IMG/VR virus record: IMGVR_UViG_2529292829_000008
Reading direction: 5' to 3' (one strand)
Length of the DNA stretch: 25,283 nucleotides
Source: a virus
Lineage: Duplodnaviria; Heunggongvirae; Uroviricota; Caudoviricetes
Positions within the stretch are counted from its first letter, which is position 1. Every line of letters begins with the position of its first letter. Of this stretch, positions 2,913-11,619 are shown piece after piece. The notes beneath the pieces are model-generated. The model ran no database searches. It saw only the letters and a program-made list of their open reading frames with translations, and was not told the origin of the DNA. Made by a program: the position numbers and the translations under genes.

Positions 2913-3113
2913 ATGCTGACGAAAGAACCATCATTTGCATCGCTGCTGGTAAAACAAAGCCCGGCAATGCACTACGGTCACGGCTGGATCATGGGTGAGG
3001 ATGGAAAACGCTGGCATCCGTGCCGTTCACAAGATGAATTGCTGGCGGAACTATCAACGAATAAACGGGGGAACAAATGGCTATTGAAAGCGCTGCGGCG
3101 ACTGTTCCATTAA
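2913..3113 (+). CDS. Hypothetical early protein (position of 186 fil/dhr-type genes)
   Basis: ORF 2883..3113; ATG at 2913 after GAGG; 66 aa; function unknown. Confidence 0.4.
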   Translation: MLTKEPSFASLLVKQSPAMHYGHGWIMGEDGKRWHPCRSQDELLAELSTNKRGNKWLLKALRRLFH

Positions 3114-3418
3114 GCCCCGGTGAACGCCTGAATGGACTTAATCACATTGCGGAGTTAAGGGCGAAAGTATTTGGCCTGAATATTGAGTCAGAGCTTGAGC
3201 GGTTTATTAAAGATATGCGTGATCCACGGGATATCAATAACGAACAAAATAAACGGGCATTGGCTGCTATATTCTTTATGGCAAAAATTCCAGCTGAACG
3301 TCATAGCATCAGCATTAATGAGCTGACCACTGACGAAAAGCGGGAGTTGATTAAAGCAATGAATCATTTTCGTGCAGTGGTGAGCTTATTTCCCAGACGG
3401 CTAACCATGCCGAATTAA
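3077..3418 (+). CDS. Hypothetical early protein
   Basis: 113-aa ORF with ATG and a GGGGGA SD-like motif; same strand and context as early operon genes. Confidence 0.45.
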   Translation: MAIESAAATVPLSPGERLNGLNHIAELRAKVFGLNIESELERFIKDMRDPRDINNEQNKRALAAIFFMAKIPAERHSISINELTTDEKRELIKAMNHFRAVVSLFPRRLTMPN

Positions 3419-3719: not shown

Positions 3720-3946
3720 TGGCTGATGCAATGGATCTCGTCCAGCAGCGAGTTGAAGAAGAACGCCAACGTCATATCCGTGCTGCCCGTGCCAAAACGC
3801 CGGGCGTGTCCCGCGTGCTTTGCGTTGAGTGTGAAGCGCCAATTCCGCCAGCACGCCGTCGTGCCATTCCGGGTGTGCAGCTTTGCATTACCTGTCAGGA
3901 AATCGCAGAGCTGAAAGGCAAACATTACAACGGAGGTGCTGTATGA
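3719..3946 (+). CDS. TraR/DksA-family C4 zinc-finger protein
   Basis: 75 aa with C-x2-C-x19-C-x2-C (CVECEAPIPPARRRAIPGVQLCITCQ), the spacing pattern of phage/plasmid TraR-like DksA zinc fingers rather than Ogr (C-x2-C-x22-C-x4-C). Confidence 0.65.
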   Translation: MADAMDLVQQRVEEERQRHIRAARAKTPGVSRVLCVECEAPIPPARRRAIPGVQLCITCQEIAELKGKHYNGGAV

Positions 3947-4800
3947 GCACCATCCTGAAATGGGCGGGAAATAAACCCGCCATAATGTCCGAACTGAAAA
4001 AGCATCTTCCTGCTGGCCCGCGACTGGTTGAACCTTTCGCGGGTTCCTGTGCTGTGATGATGGAGACGGATTACCCCAGCTATCTTGTTGCGGATATTAA
4101 TCCTGATTTAATCAACCTCTATAAAAAGGTTGCTGCTGATTGTGAGGCGTTTATATCTCGTGCCAGAGCTTTATTTGAGGAAGCAAACAGGGAGGTGGCT
4201 TATTACAACATAAGGCAGGAGTTTAATTACTCCACTGAAATTACTGATTTCATGAAAGCGGTATATTTTCTGTATCTCAATCGTCATGGTTACCGTGGGT
4301 TATGTCGCTATAACAAGAGCGGGTATTTCAACATTCCCTACGGTAATTATAAAAATCCGTATTTCCCTGAAAAAGAAATTCGCGCATTTGCAGAGAAAGC
4401 CCAGCGAGCAACGTTTATCTGCGCCAGCTTTGATGAAACGCTGGCGATGCTGCAGGGGGGGGATGTGGTGTATTGCGATCCGCCTTATGACGGTACGTTT
4501 TCCGGTTATCACACTGACGGCTTCACTGAAGATGACCAGTATCACCTGGCATCCGTTCTTGAACATCGGTCATCAGAAGGACATCCCGTCATTGTTTCTA
4601 ACAGTGACACATCCCTGATCCGTTCGCTGTATCGCAATTTTACTCACCACTACATCAAGGCAAAACGCAGCATCGGTGTGGCAGCTGGTGATAGTAAATC
4701 TGCAACAGAAATCATTGCTGTTTCCGGGGCGCGCTGCTGGGTGGGATTTGATCCTTCGCGTGGCGTAGATAGTTCTGCTGTGTACGAGGTGCGTGTATGA
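3943..4800 (+). CDS. dam: DNA adenine methyltransferase, Dam-like (D12 class N6-A MTase)
   Basis: From ATG 3943 (GGAGG SD): KWAGNK near the N-terminus, FAGSCAV (motif I-like), [15 protein letters not shown], and catalytic DPPY ([10 protein letters not shown]); near-colinear with E. coli Dam as I recall it. Confidence 0.88.
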
Positions 4801-7211
4801 GTCATGACGATATGAGCAACTCTAGCGGCTTTAACGAGGCCGCTGCATCATTTTCATGGAACGGCCCGAAAAAGGCCATTAACCCTTATCTGGACCCGGC
4901 GGAAGTTGCGCCGGAGTCTGCACTTTCAAACCTGATCACTCTGTATGTTGCCGATAACGAGCAGGAACAACTGCGCCGCGAGGCACTGAGTGAGCAGGTC
5001 TGGGAGCGTTATTTCTTTAATGAATCCCGTGATCCTGTCCAGCGCGAAATGGAGCAGGATAAGCTCATTAGCCGGGCAAAGCTGGCGCATGAGCAGCAGC
5101 GTTTTAATCCAGACATGGTCATTCTGGCTGACGTCAACGCCCAGCCTTCCCATATCAGCAAGCCGCTGATGCAACGTATTGAATACTTCAGCAGCTTGGG
5201 CAGGCCAAAGGCTTATTCCCGCTATTTGCGTGAGACGATTAAGCCATGTCTGGAACGACTGGAGCATGTACGCGACAGTCAGCTATCCACTTCTTTTCGC
5301 TTTATGGCAAGCCATGAAGGGCTGGACGGCCTGCTGATCCTGCCTGAAATGAGTCAGGATCAGGTAAAACGCCTGTCCACCCTGGTAGCTGCGCATATGA
5401 GCATGTGCCTTGATGCCGCTTGTGGCGATTTATATGCCACCGATGACGTTAAGCCAGAAGAAATCCGCAAGACATGGGAAAAGGTGGCAGCGGAAACCCT
5501 GCGACTGGATGTTATCCCGCCTGCGTTTGAGCAACTCCGCCGGAAAAGAAACCGCCGTAAACCAGTGCCCTATGAACTCATTCCGGGCTCGCTGGCGCGT
5601 ATGCTGTGCGCCGACTGGTGGTATCGGAAATTGTGGAAGATGCGTTGCGAATGGCGGGAAGAGCAGTTGCGTGCTGTCTGCCTGGTCAGCAAAAAAGCAT
5701 CTCCCTATGTCAGCTATGAAGCTGTGATGCATAAACGTGAGCAGCGCCGTAAGTCGATGGAGTTTTTCCGTTCTCATGAACTGGTGAACGAAGACGGAGA
5801 CGCGCTGGATATGGAAGATGTGGTAAACGCCAGCTGCAGCAACCCGGCGCATCGCCGCAATGAGATGATGGCCTGTGTTAAAGGTCTGGAGCTTATCGCG
5901 GAAATGCGCGGTGACTGCGCCGTTTTCTACACTATTACCTGTCCGTCACGTTTCCATTCCACGCTCAATAACGGCAGACCCAACCCGACCTGGAAAAACG
6001 CGACGGTAAGACAAAGCAGCGATTATCTGGTCGGTATGTTTGCTGCATTTCGTAAGGCGATGCACAAAGCCGGGTTGCGCTGGTATGGCGTGCGGGTGGC
6101 TGAGCCGCATCACGACGGCACAGTTCACTGGCACCTGTTGTGTTTCATGCGCAAAAAAGACCGCCGCGCCATTACTGCATTGTTGCGTAAGTTTGCTATC
6201 CGTGAAGACCGCGAGGAGCTGGGCAATAACACGGGGCCGCGCTTTAAGTCTGAGCTGATTAACCCGCGCAAAGGAACGCCGACAAGCTACATAGCGAAAT
6301 ACATCAGTAAGAACATTGACGGGCGTGGTCTGGCTGGCGAGATCAGCAAGGAAACGGGTAAATCTCTTCGTGATAACGCTGAATACGTGAATGCCTGGGC
6401 GTCTTTGCATCGTGTTCAGCAATTCCGCTTCTTTGGTATTCCGGGGCGTCAGGCTTACCGTGAACTGCGATTGCTGGCTGGTCAGGCGGCAAGGCAGCAG
6501 GGTGACAAAAAAGCAGGTGTGCCGGTACTGGATAACCCGCGCCTTGATGCCATTCTGGCTGCTGCTGATGCTGGTTGTTTTGCCACCTATATCATGAAGC
6601 AGGGAGGTGTACTGGTTCCCCGTAAATATCACCTCATCAGAACCGCTTATGAAATTAACGAAGAGCCGACCGCCTATGGCGATCACGGTATTCGTATTTA
6701 TGGCATCTGGTCACCCATTGCAGAGGGCAAGATCTGCACTCATGCAGTGAAGTGGAAAATGGTTCGTAAGGCCGTTGACGTTCAGGAGGCGGCAGCCGAC
6801 CAGGGCGCTTGCGCCCCTTGGACTCGTGGCAATAACTGTCCCCTTGCTGAAAATTTGAACCAACAAGGGAAAGACAAATCAGCTGATGGGGACTCCAGAA
6901 CGGATATTACCCGTATGAATGACAAGGAGTTGCACGATTACCTGCACAGTATGAGCAAAAAAGAGCGCCGGGAACTGGCTGCAAGGTTACGCCAAGTGAA
7001 ACCGAAACGGCGTAAAGACTACAAACAGCGAATTACAGACCATCAGCGACAGCAGCTCGTCTATGAACTGAAGTCCAGGGGATTTGATGGCAGCGAGAAA
7101 GAAGTCGATTTGCTCCTTCGCGGCGGCAGTATTCCGTCAGGAGCAGGCCTGCGTATCTTCTATCGGAACCAGCGTCTGAAGGAAGATGATAAGTGGCGGA
7201 ACCTGTATTAA
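4797..7211 (+). CDS. A: Replication initiation endonuclease (P2 gpA-type rolling-circle initiator)
   Basis: 804 aa; HUH motif ([10 protein letters not shown]) and paired active-site tyrosines ([12 protein letters not shown]), as in P2 gpA; start overlaps the dam stop. Confidence 0.9.
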
Positions 7212-7303
7212 TTACGCGGGTTAACAATTCGTGCTCTTAATAATACCAGGCATATCAGGCCGATGAACGTAAAAAAACGTTTTACATCAGTAAGATTATT
7301 ATA

Positions 7304-7323
7304 TACTGTAAATATAAACAGTG
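7304..7323 (+). promoter_or_regulatory. LexA (SOS) box TACTGTAAATATAAACAGTG
   Basis: CTGT-N8-ACAG core at 7306-7321 with an AT-rich centre, about 40 bp upstream of the 7364 ORF; a partial second half-site (ATACAGTA) follows at about 7330-7337. Confidence 0.6.
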
Positions 7324-7363
7324 GTTATGTATACAGTATTGTTTTGGTGTCATAGGAGGAAAG

Positions 7364-7552
7364 ATGCAGGACTATTTTTTGGAGTCTTTGAAGCTTCAGC
7401 GCATTGATTTTTTTCTTAAGCTTGTAGCGGCTAGTGAGTGTAGTGATGAAGAGAAGGGGCTGGCTCTGCAGTGGGTTTCTGAATTGACTGATGAACTTAT
7501 GGCAAAAATCAGAAGCCACGAATACAACCGCTCAATGGATATCATCAGCTGA
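7364..7552 (+). CDS. Small hypothetical protein, first gene of the LexA-boxed operon (possible Tum-like antirepressor component)
   Basis: 62-aa ORF with strong AGGAGGA SD; immediately downstream of the LexA box and upstream of the DinI-like gene. Confidence 0.4.
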   Translation: MQDYFLESLKLQRIDFFLKLVAASECSDEEKGLALQWVSELTDELMAKIRSHEYNRSMDIIS

Positions 7553-7562
7553 GGTGACTTTT

Positions 7563-7796
7563 ATGCGCATTGAAATAATGATCGATAAAGAGCAGAAGAT
7601 TAGCCAGTCTACCCTGGACGCCCTTGAATCCGAGCTTTACCGCAATCTGCGCCCCCTGTATCCCAAAACGGTAATTCGCATTCGCAAAGGTAGTTCTAAC
7701 GGTGTGGAACTAACCGGACTGCAACTGGATGAAGAAAGAAAACAAGTGATGAAAATTATGCAGAAGGTGTGGGAGGACGACAGCTGGCTGCATTAA
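7563..7796 (+). CDS. dinI: DinI-family protein
   Basis: From ATG 7563 (GAGGTGA SD): MRIEIMIDKEQKISQSTLDALESELYRNLRPLYP...VMKIMQKVWEDDSWLH, resembling E. coli DinI (MRIEVTIAK...ILQETWE...) in length and motifs. Confidence 0.7.
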   Translation: MRIEIMIDKEQKISQSTLDALESELYRNLRPLYPKTVIRIRKGSSNGVELTGLQLDEERKQVMKIMQKVWEDDSWLH

Positions 7797-7988
7797 GAAA
7801 CGTTGCCCCCAGGAGGATTCATTCTGATGGGGGCTAGTTTGGGCAATGAGTGAAATAAGGCGTAAGGTGGGCGGTTATTTTGATAAGTGATCGTCCGCTT
7901 TGTGTCAGAAGCAGAAGTGGGAGTGTCTGAGACTCTCTAAAAGTTGATGATTCACTTACAAAACCATTTTCCTGATGAATGCTTACAC

Positions 7989-8324
7989 TTACGAATGATC
8001 ATTCTGTTTAGTCTTCATGAGAAAATCCCGAATCTTTGCCAAGTTTGAATTTTCGGGGATTGAATCCATGTACGGATCACGCTCAAACACTAATTGCTCA
8101 GATTCAACGAAAGCCTGCCACTCTACTGGGTCTAGCTCAAATCCCATTGCTGTCATATCACTTTCATCTTCCCCCTCGATCCAGTGGACTAAATAAAACA
8201 ATTCATCATCAGGAGAATCATCCTCACCATCAACAATATCAACATCGGTTACAGTGATACGTAGGGTGGGATCGATTTTTGAGACATAAATTCCTAACTG
8301 TGGTATAGGGGGAATATTGTTCAT
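7989..8324 (-). CDS. Highly acidic hypothetical protein (111 aa)
   Basis: ATG with AGGAG SD; roughly 26 Asp/Glu versus about 8 basic residues; AT-rich; located beside cos. Confidence 0.5.
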   Translation of the reverse strand: MNNIPPIPQLGIYVSKIDPTLRITVTDVDIVDGEDDSPDDELFYLVHWIEGEDESDMTAMGFELDPVEWQAFVESEQLVFERDPYMDSIPENSNLAKIRDFLMKTKQNDHS

Positions 8325-8703
8325 GGAAACTCCTTTTATTGGTGTTTGCTATTTGAATAAAAATACGCCAAACAGAGTGTTAACTGTGAATATGGAAAGA
8401 ATCGTTGTAAGTACCCCGCTTAGGTGTCCCATTCTATTTTAGAGGTTCTCGTGCATATGGATTATGTTATCTGAAAGCTAACTTCCGCTTCCCGTTCACA
8501 GCGAACATTCATCTTTGTAAACCCGTATGATCCGTTTTTCAAGTGGCCATTCAGATACGGATTTTCACTTCCTTGACAGTGCATGACTATGCTGCATGAA
8601 ATCGCATGATCGATTGAGGATCGTCTTTGCTCAGATCCGCCAGAACTGGCGGGCTTTTGCTCATGTCATGCATGTGCATGAAAACCACTGCATAAAGCGG
8701 GCA

Positions 8704-8722
8704 GGCGTGGCGGGGATACGAG
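8704..8722. other. Candidate cos site (P2/186-type cohesive end, cosN)
   Basis: GGCGTGGCGGGGATACGAG: the first 13 nt match the 19-nt cohesive ends of 186/P2 as I recall them (GGCGTGGCGGGGAAAGCAT / GGCGAGGCGGGGAAAGCAC); lies in a 475-bp non-coding region between the replication and packaging modules. Confidence 0.55.
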
Positions 8723-8799
8723 CGCGCGCATTGATTTCAAAAGATGAAATCAAGTGGTACGATAAGTAGGATTACTACCAATTCTCAAAGGGATGTCTC

Positions 8800-10497
8800 A
8801 TGCATAGAATTGTTAAAGCTCATCTTGATAACTTCGTGAAAAGTCACGGTATTGAAAATCATCAAGAGGACACGCAGTTCGAGCTATTTTGTAATAAAGC
8901 TTTGCTGTCTTCTCGTATAAGTATGGATTATGAAATTGACGATGTAACAACCGGGGCTGGTGATGATGGCATGGATGGTGTTGCCATCATAATTGATGAA
9001 GAATTGTGTATATCTTCTGAAGATGCTACTTCAATATTTTCCTCATTACGTAAAAATCATGATGTTGATATTGTTTTCATTCAATCAAAGCGTAGTGAGT
9101 CTTTTGATTTAGGTGATTTTTTAAAGTTTAAAGCTTCCGTTTTTAGATTTATAGAGGATTCTCCTTACTTATGTGTGGATGAAATTCAAAAAAATGCAAG
9201 GGAAGTTTTTGATGTCATAATAAAAAATGTACCTAAGATAAGAGGTGGGCGACCAACTTTTACTGCTAAATATGTTGCAACTGGTTTATATAAAAAACCT
9301 AAAGAGTTAGAGAATGCTCGGAAGTTATTTGCAAAAGAAATTGACGAGTTGGGGTATTTCTGTAATGTTAGCGTTGAGTTTGTTGATCGTGATGAATTAA
9401 CACGTACTTGGATTGATACTTATTCAGTTGTCAATGCTGAATTGCCATTATTTAGTAATGCACCACTTCCCAAAATTAATGGTATAGAAGAAGCTTATCT
9501 TGCTGTCGTTAAAGCAAAGGATTTTGTTGGTAATTTATTGATGACGGACGAGGGGTCTCTCCGTAATCATGTTTTTGTTGAGAACGTCAGGGCGTTCTTG
9601 GGAATTGATAATCCTGTTAACGCATCGATTGCTGAGACAATTAAAAATAAAGATGCCGCTTCACGATTTCCTGTTTTAAATAATGGAATAACAATTGTTA
9701 GTCCGGATGTAAAACTTCAAGGGAGTATTTTACATCTAGAAAATTTTCAGATAGTTAATGGCTGTCAGACATCAAATGTGCTTTACGAATGCCGCGATTC
9801 CTTAGATGATACGATGATGGTTAACTTGAAAGTCGTAGAGACATTAAACGAAGATGTTTTTTCAGAATTGGTTCGAGCGACTAACAGTCAGACTAAAGTT
9901 GATGAGACTCAGTTCTATTCTCTTCGTCCAATAATAAAGAAAGTAGAAGCGTACTTTGATACTTATGAAGGGCAGGATGGTCGTTTATATTTAGAAAGAC
10001 GTGAAAGACAATTTATCGGTAGAGATATACCTGCAGTTAGAGTATTTTCAGTTCATATGGCAGCTAAATGTGTAGCAGCTATGTTCTTCCGTCGGCCAGA
10101 TCTTTCATATAGATACCCTAAAAAAATGTATGAATTGTTGGCTGAGAAAATATTTTCTAATGATACCAAGGAGATTGTATTTTATTCAGCATGTTTAACA
10201 TTATATAGATTACACTTACTTACTTCTAATGCTGATATTCCACAAAATATCAGGAAGTACAAATGGCATTTAATGGCGGTAGTTGGTGCTTTAATTGCCG
10301 GAAAGGATGTGCCTAATTTTGGATCTAAGAAAATGGATGCGTATTGTAATAAAATCATCACTGAAATGACAAAGCATGGTGATAAAATAAAAGCTACTTT
10401 CCAGAAGGCTGTTGATATTGTTTTGTCAATTGATGATATCACTGATGATAGAATGAAAAGGCAAGCTATTTTAGAGGAAATGCTTGCCAAGATTTAA
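8800..10497 (+). CDS. Low-GC cargo protein, candidate AIPR-like abortive-infection / defence protein
   Basis: 565-aa ORF, much more AT-rich than the backbone; sits between cos and the portal gene; contains ...FPVLNNGITIVSPDV...ENFQIVNGCQTSNVLYE... (DNA about 9751-9774), which I recall as resembling the conserved NGxQT core of the AIPR family. ORF call is solid; family assignment is tentative. Confidence 0.55.
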   Translation: MHRIVKAHLDNFVKSHGIENHQEDTQFELFCNKALLSSRISMDYEIDDVTTGAGDDGMDGVAIIIDEELCISSEDATSIFSSLRKNHDVDIVFIQSKRSESFDLGDFLKFKASVFRFIEDSPYLCVDEIQKNAREVFDVIIKNVPKIRGGRPTFTAKYVATGLYKKPKELENARKLFAKEIDELGYFCNVSVEFVDRDELTRTWIDTYSVVNAELPLFSNAPLPKINGIEEAYLAVVKAKDFVGNLLMTDEGSLRNHVFVENVRAFLGIDNPVNASIAETIKNKDAASRFPVLNNGITIVSPDVKLQGSILHLENFQIVNGCQTSNVLYECRDSLDDTMMVNLKVVETLNEDVFSELVRATNSQTKVDETQFYSLRPIIKKVEAYFDTYEGQDGRLYLERRERQFIGRDIPAVRVFSVHMAAKCVAAMFFRRPDLSYRYPKKMYELLAEKIFSNDTKEIVFYSACLTLYRLHLLTSNADIPQNIRKYKWHLMAVVGALIAGKDVPNFGSKKMDAYCNKIITEMTKHGDKIKATFQKAVDIVLSIDDITDDRMKRQAILEEMLAKI

Positions 10498-10584: not shown

Positions 10585-11619
10585 TTAAGCTAACTCAAGG
10601 CTATATGTATTGAATTTAATAATGTCATCTTCTACCCACTCATTAATTTCTTTGATTCTTTCCTGTAAGGGGGTTAATTCGTTACGGACGAATACCTTGC
10701 TGGCTTTTTCAATATCGCCAAATCCACCAGTGTTTTGTGGAATAATGCCCATCATCTGCGGAGGAACTCGATGTGCTGCCATCATGTCATCGCGACTGAC
10801 ATTTTTGATATTCAGAAACTCATCCTTCGCCGCGACTTCTGACAACGGGATGATCTGAAGCCCGTCCTTTTTGCCGTTAGGCGAGTACATAAACAAATTG
10901 CGGAAGTTGCCTGGACCTTTGGCACTTTTCATCGCGTTGCGGAGGTTGTTTACATCTTCCTGGTTTTGCGCGGCGTCGGTCATGTACATGATGAAGCCTG
11001 CATGACTGCCGTTAATGTAATACTTCCGGCGGAACAGCGTGGCGGACTCGTTGAGCAGGGCTGACGGAATGACAGAAAGATAGCCGGGCAGGCCGTAGAT
11101 TTCTTGATTAATATCCGGCTCCATCAGGTGAAAAATGCTGCCTTTCGTGAACTGATACGGCTGCGTGGTCATGCCGTATTGCACAAACCAGTAGGTATCC
11201 AGGTCTAACCCGCGTCGGGGGTATTTTGCCAGCGCAGGCTCAAGGGCGATAACTTCACCGAATCGGTTCGTGCGTTTCTCCAGGTAGGCGTTACCAAATA
11301 CCAGATAGTCCTGCACAAAACGCGAAAAAGCCTGCTGGCTGAGCAGCGGGGGGGGGATGTAGGTACTGGTCAGAATGTTGCATTTCACCGCAATTGGTGA
11401 ACTGTGATGCACGGCGGCGCGGAAGGTGCGCGCCAGTCCGTCAAAGCTTACTGGCGGCTCATACCAGCGATCTGTCTGTAAGCATTCCACATAGTCCAGC
11501 AGTTCGCGGCGGTCCAGAACAGGAACGGGATCACCGAAGCTGAATGCTTCGGCTGTAGTCTGGCTTTTATGCTGAATCTGGGTCGTCGCCGCAGCGCGCT
11601 TCTTCTTACTCTTTCCCAT
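10585..11619 (-). CDS. Q: Portal protein (P2 gpQ-like)
   Basis: 344 aa, same length as P2 gpQ; ...SFDGLARTFRAAVHHSSPIAVKCNIL...FRRKYYINGSHAGFIMYMTDAA... is colinear with my recollection of gpQ. Confidence 0.92.
   Translation of the reverse strand: MGKSKKKRAAATTQIQHKSQTTAEAFSFGDPVPVLDRRELLDYVECLQTDRWYEPPVSFDGLARTFRAAVHHSSPIAVKCNILTSTYIPPPLLSQQAFSRFVQDYLVFGNAYLEKRTNRFGEVIALEPALAKYPRRGLDLDTYWFVQYGMTTQPYQFTKGSIFHLMEPDINQEIYGLPGYLSVIPSALLNESATLFRRKYYINGSHAGFIMYMTDAAQNQEDVNNLRNAMKSAKGPGNFRNLFMYSPNGKKDGLQIIPLSEVAAKDEFLNIKNVSRDDMMAAHRVPPQMMGIIPQNTGGFGDIEKASKVFVRNELTPLQERIKEINEWVEDDIIKFNTYSLELA

Follow-up and report, generated by a model that had tools for sequence, protein, structure and literature searches.

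The window, by which we mean the whole stretch of 25,283 nucleotides that was analyzed, is a P2/186-like prophage (Fels-2/186-like, P2-family) with E. coli as its host. Its left end is occupied by an integrase gene on the minus strand (1-1131), followed by cI on the same strand (1447-2022; Pfam Phage_CI_repr and Phage_CI_C), which encodes a 186-family immunity repressor, presumably the protein on which the antirepressor described below acts. Next come cII (2390-2905), a DUF5347 gene of the early operon on the plus strand (3077-3418), and a plus-strand gene for a D12-class Dam methylase (3883-4800), whose counterpart in Fels-2 is annotated as similar to the Dam of retron Ec67. The 3′ end of the methylase gene overlaps the start of replication gene A (4797-7211; Phage_GPA, E 1e-126), while the portal gene Q lies farther to the right on the minus strand (10585-11619), with the late genes beyond it. 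Between gene A and the portal gene sits a candidate SOS operon of two plus-strand genes, which encode a 62-aa protein, hereafter ORF62 (7364-7552), and a 77-aa DinI-family protein (7563-7796), preceded by a LexA operator. The region 7200-8800 was 99-99.9% identical to chromosomal E. coli prophages, and parts of it were matched in 1316 of 5426 complete E. coli genomes.

The first predicted LexA box, TACTGTAAATATAAACAGTG (7304-7323, plus strand), agrees with the consensus at 17 of 20 positions and has both its CTGT and its ACAG arm intact. Its core (7306-7321) is the sole CTGT-N8-ACAG in the 25.3-kb window, and no other site in the window matched the 20-mer LexA consensus when up to three mismatches were allowed. 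A match of that quality was found in none of 100 dinucleotide shuffles, so that the near-consensus box described ahead of the operon in the original prediction was borne out. The prediction had named a single box, however, and this part has to be amended, as a second predicted box, CAGTGGTTATGTATACAGTA (7319-7338, plus strand; 15 of 20 positions), directly follows. Its core, GTGG-N8-ACAG (7321-7336), combines a degenerate left arm with the regular right arm, and the two 16-bp cores overlap by one base, G7321. As read from the sequence, the operator is thus an overlapping pair of predicted LexA boxes in the dual layout of the colicin type. When positions 7296-7345 were compared with plasmids by BLASTN, the matches were found on small Col-type plasmids and on Yersinia pPCP1, just 5′ of the colicin Y, colicin E1, and pesticin genes. 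The 37-mer at 7304-7340 was identical to the colicin Y operator at 34 of 37 positions and to the colicin E1 and pesticin operators at 32 of 37 each.

The conservation of the operator was examined in 80 close relatives from IMG/VR, which contained 50 distinct upstream sequences. Box 1 was kept at the same position in 79 of the 80, and both boxes were present in 74. Among the 50 distinct sequences, variation fell mainly within the middle of the spacer of box 2 and at positions immediately 3′ of its ACAG, which is the pattern expected from LexA binding. One relative, L004, had box 1, the left part of box 2, and all promoter sequence further upstream swapped for unrelated GC-rich sequence, the replacement lying directly upstream (of position 6001) of what remains, TATACATACAG. 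The prophage at this locus may be rearranged or truncated, its antirepressor having escaped LexA control.

By analogy with the 186 promoter p95, which is annotated as TTCACA, 18 nt, and then the TACTGT with which the LexA box begins, a probable −10 hexamer TACTGT (7304-7309, plus strand) was placed inside the left arm of box 1. The same layout points to TTTACA (7281-7286, plus strand) as the probable −35 hexamer, at a spacing of 17 nt. On this comparison, the operon promoter is likely the equivalent of p95. A generic promoter and terminator scan of 7100-8100 called neither kind of element, and the candidate promoter was missed because its poor −10 hexamer matches the consensus at only three of six positions.

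The first gene of the operon, tumA-like, encodes the predicted antirepressor of the prophage CI. Its Shine-Dalgarno sequence AGGAGG (7354-7359, plus strand) ends 4 nt before the ATG and was near-invariant across the 50 distinct upstream sequences, with one variant reading GAGGAGG instead of TAGGAGG. ORF62 is labelled "hypothetical protein" in essentially all annotations; it had no meaningful match in Pfam, NCBIfam, or PADLOC, and it was assigned to phrog_698 (E 1.3e-37). A pairwise BLASTP comparison of ORF62 with 186 Tum gave no alignment, but the relationship could be detected by profile methods. The N-terminal 70 aa of 186 Tum matched the same family, phrog_698 (E 5.9e-6), and both that part of Tum and ORF62 matched phrog_8554 and phrog_1993. 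An exhaustive HMMER search for the ORF62 family yielded 67 cluster representatives, and an HMM built from 31 of them aligned with residues 5-48 of 186 Tum at 36.3 bits. Alignment of the ORF62 family against the N-terminal halves of Tum proteins with hhalign gave a probability of 95.9% (E 5.9e-9), while ORF62 itself is only about 20% identical to the N-terminal half of 186 Tum. The common motif is roughly (L/V)QRI-x-L-x-x-RLVA-x3-C-x3-DKELAL-x-W(I/V)-x-EL. These sequence comparisons support homology between ORF62 and the antirepressor portion at the N terminus of 186 Tum. PsP3 TumA scored weakly against the ORF62 profile, at 4.5 bits.

Nearly all of the 67 representatives were stand-alone proteins of 50-100 aa; in the few longer ones the match lay at or near the C-terminal end, or there was no aligned stretch. 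A Tum-like fusion to DinI was found in none of the 67. The AF2 model of ORF62 is a helical hairpin with helices at residues 2-23 and 28-61 (pLDDT 88). A Foldseek search of the PDB with this model returned generic helical matches only, all with E above 1, and a sequence search of the PDB found no match. A literature search for TumA together with antirepressor likewise had no match. The profile evidence justifies naming ORF62 a TumA-type antirepressor, which is of practical value given how the protein is currently labelled.

The second gene, tumB-like, starts at ATG 7563, 10 nt after the ORF62 stop codon, and is preceded by GAGGTG (7551-7556), which overlaps that stop codon; its translation is probably coupled to that of ORF62. 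Its product covered the full Pfam DinI profile PF06183 (positions 1-63) at 81.3 bits against a cut-off of 24.2 (E 6.6e-23), which confirmed the operon as one encoding a 62-aa and a DinI-family protein. Alignment to the E. coli DinI structure 1GHH gave E 2.7e-6. Against the host-DinI equivalog NCBIfam NF007893, the score was 42.7 bits, below the cut-off of 111, and by this sequence criterion the protein is classed as a phage DinI-like paralogue and not the host protein. Over 75 aa it was 41% identical to residues 71-145 of 186 Tum (E 3e-24), in agreement with the earlier remark that Tum is DinI-related in part. The suggestion of a split Tum also held, both proteins being homologous to Tum halves, and their combined size, 62 + 77 = 139 aa, is close to the 146 aa of 186 Tum, as had been pointed out. 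Since the two genes lie in different frames with a 10-nt gap, the operon has the split form of PsP3 and Fels-2 and not the fused 146-aa form of 186.

The DinI frame is open upstream to ATG 7491, and in the stretch 7491-7562 it overlaps, at +1 relative to ORF62, the 3′ end of that gene. For this reason, gene callers often give the DinI protein as 85-101 aa. E. coli DinI, PsP3 TumB, and the short form of 186 Tum agree with the 77-aa version that begins at ATG 7563. A programmed frameshift from ORF62 into the DinI frame was considered, and no frameshift signal was noted on reading the overlap. The idea of a frameshift fusion was dropped, given that the DinI gene has its own Shine-Dalgarno sequence and ATG, and that PsP3, E. 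coli DinI, and the 186 short forms start at the equivalent methionine.

Just 3′ of the operon, a GC-rich hairpin (7798-7840, plus strand) with the core GCCCCCA...TGGGGGC (7805-7834) and a weak U tract folds at −20.4 kcal/mol (z −2.2). It was not called by the terminator scan and may be a possible, perhaps partial, terminator like 186 t95a. Converging on the operon from the minus strand is a very acidic 111-aa ORF (7989-8324), which matched phrog_17127 (E 2e-70) and had no match in Pfam, NCBIfam, or PADLOC. It occupies the slot taken in Fels-2 by the unrelated same-strand gene STM2726 and in 186 by orf97; an equivalence of STM2726 with orf97 was considered and rejected, as the two have no similarity. 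Farther downstream, the variable cargo that separates the tum operon from portal gene Q includes a plus-strand gene for a 565-aa AIPR-family abortive-infection protein (8800-10497; Pfam AIPR 1.5e-43, PADLOC AbiU 4e-112, phrog_1841 "Abi alpha-like"), whose product is 93% identical to that of the Fels-2 AIPR/AbiU gene STM2723.1.

The original prediction rested in part on the absence of an autocleavage motif from CI, and the domain analysis agreed, as Pfam assigned Phage_CI_repr and Phage_CI_C to the window CI and no Peptidase_S24 (autocleavage) domain was found. The window CI is 32% identical to 186 CI (E 2e-37). A non-cleavable CI of the 186 type fits a prophage induced through an antirepressor rather than by RecA-mediated cleavage, and the SOS induction documented for Fels-2 calls for some antirepressor when CI lacks an autocleavage domain.

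Among the loci with an ORF62 at least 97% identical to that of the window, the full-length CIs ranged from 95% down to 39% identity to the window CI. In the divergent CIs (39-55% identical), the N-terminal helix-turn-helix domain was 62-74% identical and the C-terminal domain 28-46%. These CIs come from the loci L005, L010, L017, L018, L020, L024, L025, L028, L039, L063, L064, L068, L071, L077, and L083, where cI is found near the left end of each locus. Some of them carry a linker insertion of about 18 aa. An ORF62 conserved at 97% or more alongside a CI that is only 39-55% identical is unexpected for a strictly cognate pair of antirepressor and repressor. The pattern suggests that TumA recognizes the N-terminal domain of CI and may act across CIs with differing C-terminal domains; mosaic recombination confounds this reading.

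The DinI gene lay in the same arrangement, 10 nt downstream, in 77 of the 80 loci with an ORF62 at least 97% identical, while among 80 loci of the 186 type tum was fused in 79 and a single LexA box was present in 76. The distant TumA-family loci L167-L189, obtained from three viral-contig scans with distant members, encode proteins 34-58% identical to ORF62. A single LexA box (15-18 of 20 positions) was located 35-60 nt before the start codon in all 22 of these with enough upstream sequence. A 186-family CI and gene A were found upstream in all 20 with enough flank, and the portal gene downstream in 23 of 23. Only one distant subgroup had a DinI gene. Because the distant loci kept the LexA box and CI and mostly lacked DinI, the constant core of the module is the LexA box, TumA, and a 186-type CI, with DinI as an optional element that may be fused, adjacent, or absent. 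The TumA-like ORFs of L167-L182 and L185-L189 (about 7001-7210 in each locus) have a conserved glycine-rich C-terminal tail that ends in LQ and reads roughly K(N/R/S)PQ-x-GG-x3-5-GG-x-LQ, and a motif-based scan downstream of these ORFs found no DinI gene.

We consider it very probable that the operon serves SOS induction in a Fels-2/186-like prophage of the P2 family and represents the split tumA/tumB form of the module. LexA, probably as two dimers, would keep the operon off in a lysogen by covering the −10 region together with the transcription start. Upon DNA damage, activated RecA would promote the self-cleavage of LexA, and the operon would be transcribed. These two steps would follow from the sequence, its conservation, and the expression data for Fels-2. 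The TumA-like hairpin would then bind the RecA-uncleavable 186-type CI and stop it from binding DNA, resulting in derepression of the lytic promoter, as is suggested by the homology to Tum and by the report on PsP3, from which we infer the mode of CI binding. The co-translated TumB-like protein would bind RecA filaments and adjust how strong the SOS signal is or how long it lasts, a role proposed from its membership in the DinI family and the annotation of the 186 short forms. Because the operator is an overlapping pair of the colicin type, we infer that the second LexA box probably leads to tighter repression and later induction than at the single-box p95 of 186. Such a module would set the timing of awakening after DNA damage in a prophage class that is very common in E. 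coli, Salmonella, and Klebsiella.

Other readings of the locus were weighed against this one. The operon might be an SOS-induced accessory unit only, in which a phage DinI modulates the host RecA and ORF62 has some other role that is not needed for induction. LexA-controlled DinI homologues are indeed common prophage cargo, the Gifsy dinI genes being an example, ORF62 is called hypothetical nearly everywhere, and a near-invariant ORF62 next to a strongly varying CI would fit a host-directed target equally well. We nevertheless regard this reading as improbable, as ORF62 is homologous to the part of Tum that is missing from the truncated, non-inducing DinI-like forms, and members of its family are always accompanied by a LexA box and a CI of the 186 family, often without DinI. 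The lack of an autocleavage domain in CI, which leaves the documented induction of Fels-2 in need of an antirepressor, speaks against it as well.

A still less probable reading is that the LexA-like sequence is fortuitous or vestigial, with the operon expressed constitutively or read from the upstream gene A transcript. Read-through is conceivable, since the generic scan found no sigma-70 promoter or terminator between gene A and ORF62, but a chance origin is difficult to reconcile with the empty shuffle control, with the retention of both boxes in 74 of 80 relatives with variation confined to spacer positions, with the LexA box in all distant relatives that have upstream sequence, or with the damage-inducibility of the Fels-2 orthologue. 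Finally, we give almost no credence to ORF62 being a "levan regulatory protein," a name given in one UniRef entry and some records of Klebsiella phages. The name has no backing from any Pfam, NCBIfam, or PADLOC family, every locus examined had the context of a phage SOS operon, and the label looks like annotation transfer.

We put forward two further ideas jointly and only tentatively, as they are somewhat less likely to hold than to fail. The dual operator would raise the SOS threshold or delay induction relative to the single-box 186 and PsP3, and TumA would recognize the conserved N-terminal domain of CI. In colicins, such dual boxes bind two LexA dimers and produce very tight repression (PMC2994835). 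If the second idea is true, P2-like prophages residing in the same cell could be induced by a single TumA even when the C-terminal domains of their CIs diverge. No paper stating either the dual-operator threshold or N-terminal recognition was found in the literature covered, which did not extend to Bunny et al. (2002). Modest leads that can be tested, concerning induction timing and prophage cross-talk, come from the double operator and the mismatch between a conserved TumA and variable CIs.

The closest known counterpart of the operon is that of Fels-2 in Salmonella Typhimurium LT2, STM2728/STM2726.1 (STM2727), whose promoter and two genes are about 96% identical in DNA to those of the window, with 95% identity between ORF62 and STM2728. 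Fels-2 shares the double LexA operator and the position after gene A. STM2728 is annotated as hypothetical, and STM2726.1 as "DinI family protein, similar to PsP3 TumB." The two loci differ in their hosts, E. coli for the window and Salmonella Typhimurium for Fels-2, and in the third gene, as Fels-2 has STM2726 (243 aa) downstream on the same strand, whereas the window has the unrelated 111-aa ORF on the opposite strand. When Salmonella TA100 was treated with the mutagen MX, STM2727 was among the most strongly induced genes of the LexA regulon, and the operon STM2726-2728 was flagged.

PsP3 shares the split architecture, the position after gene A, and the upstream LexA box. Its upstream gene of about 60 aa, tumA, is annotated as "similar to 5' end 186 tum; UV induction of prophage," and its 77-aa dinI-like gene, tumB, as "similar to dinI and 3' end of 186 tum." However, PsP3 TumA is only 22% identical to ORF62, tumA and tumB of PsP3 lie in the same frame with a stop codon between them whereas the window ORFs are in different frames, the PsP3 operator has a single LexA box compared with two in the window, and the PsP3 CI is larger (286 aa). 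Lemire et al. (2011) described tum as split in two in Fels-2 and PsP3, with the upstream gene of PsP3 as the antirepressor (PMC3121763); the antirepressor activity of the split upstream gene is a personal communication quoted second-hand in that source (PMC3121763).

In 186, Tum expressed from the LexA-repressed p95 inactivates CI, and the LexA box overlaps the TACTGT −10 hexamer as it does in the window. Tum binds CI and prevents it from binding its operators (PMC3121763). The 186 CI belongs to the same family as the window CI and is likewise without autocleavage. The differences are that 186 Tum is one polypeptide of 146 aa, whose internal starts also give short DinI-like forms annotated to "modulate SOS induction," that its operator has a single LexA box, and that the third gene is a different one, orf97.

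The colicin and pesticin operators (cea, cya, pst) resemble the window operator in that the left arm of their second box is a degenerate GTGG and the two cores share one base. In colicins, the dual boxes control toxin genes, whereas in the window they precede a prophage antirepressor, and the colicin promoters have TTGACA upstream of the boxes, where the window sequence is unrelated. The antirepressors GfoA, GftA, and FsoA of the Gifsy and Fels-1 prophages and AntC of N15 follow the same principle, as each is a small LexA-repressed antirepressor acting against a non-cleavable repressor, often with a dinI homologue. No sequence relationship to ORF62 was detected for any of them, and they belong to lambdoid phages with a different repressor family and the reversed gene order, dinI first.

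The split tumA/tumB arrangement had thus already been described for PsP3 and Fels-2, a precedent that the original prediction had missed. The module in the window is real but ordinary and adds nothing conceptually to these known systems. Beyond them, it contributes two small additions, the double operator of the colicin type and a conserved TumA paired with variable CIs.
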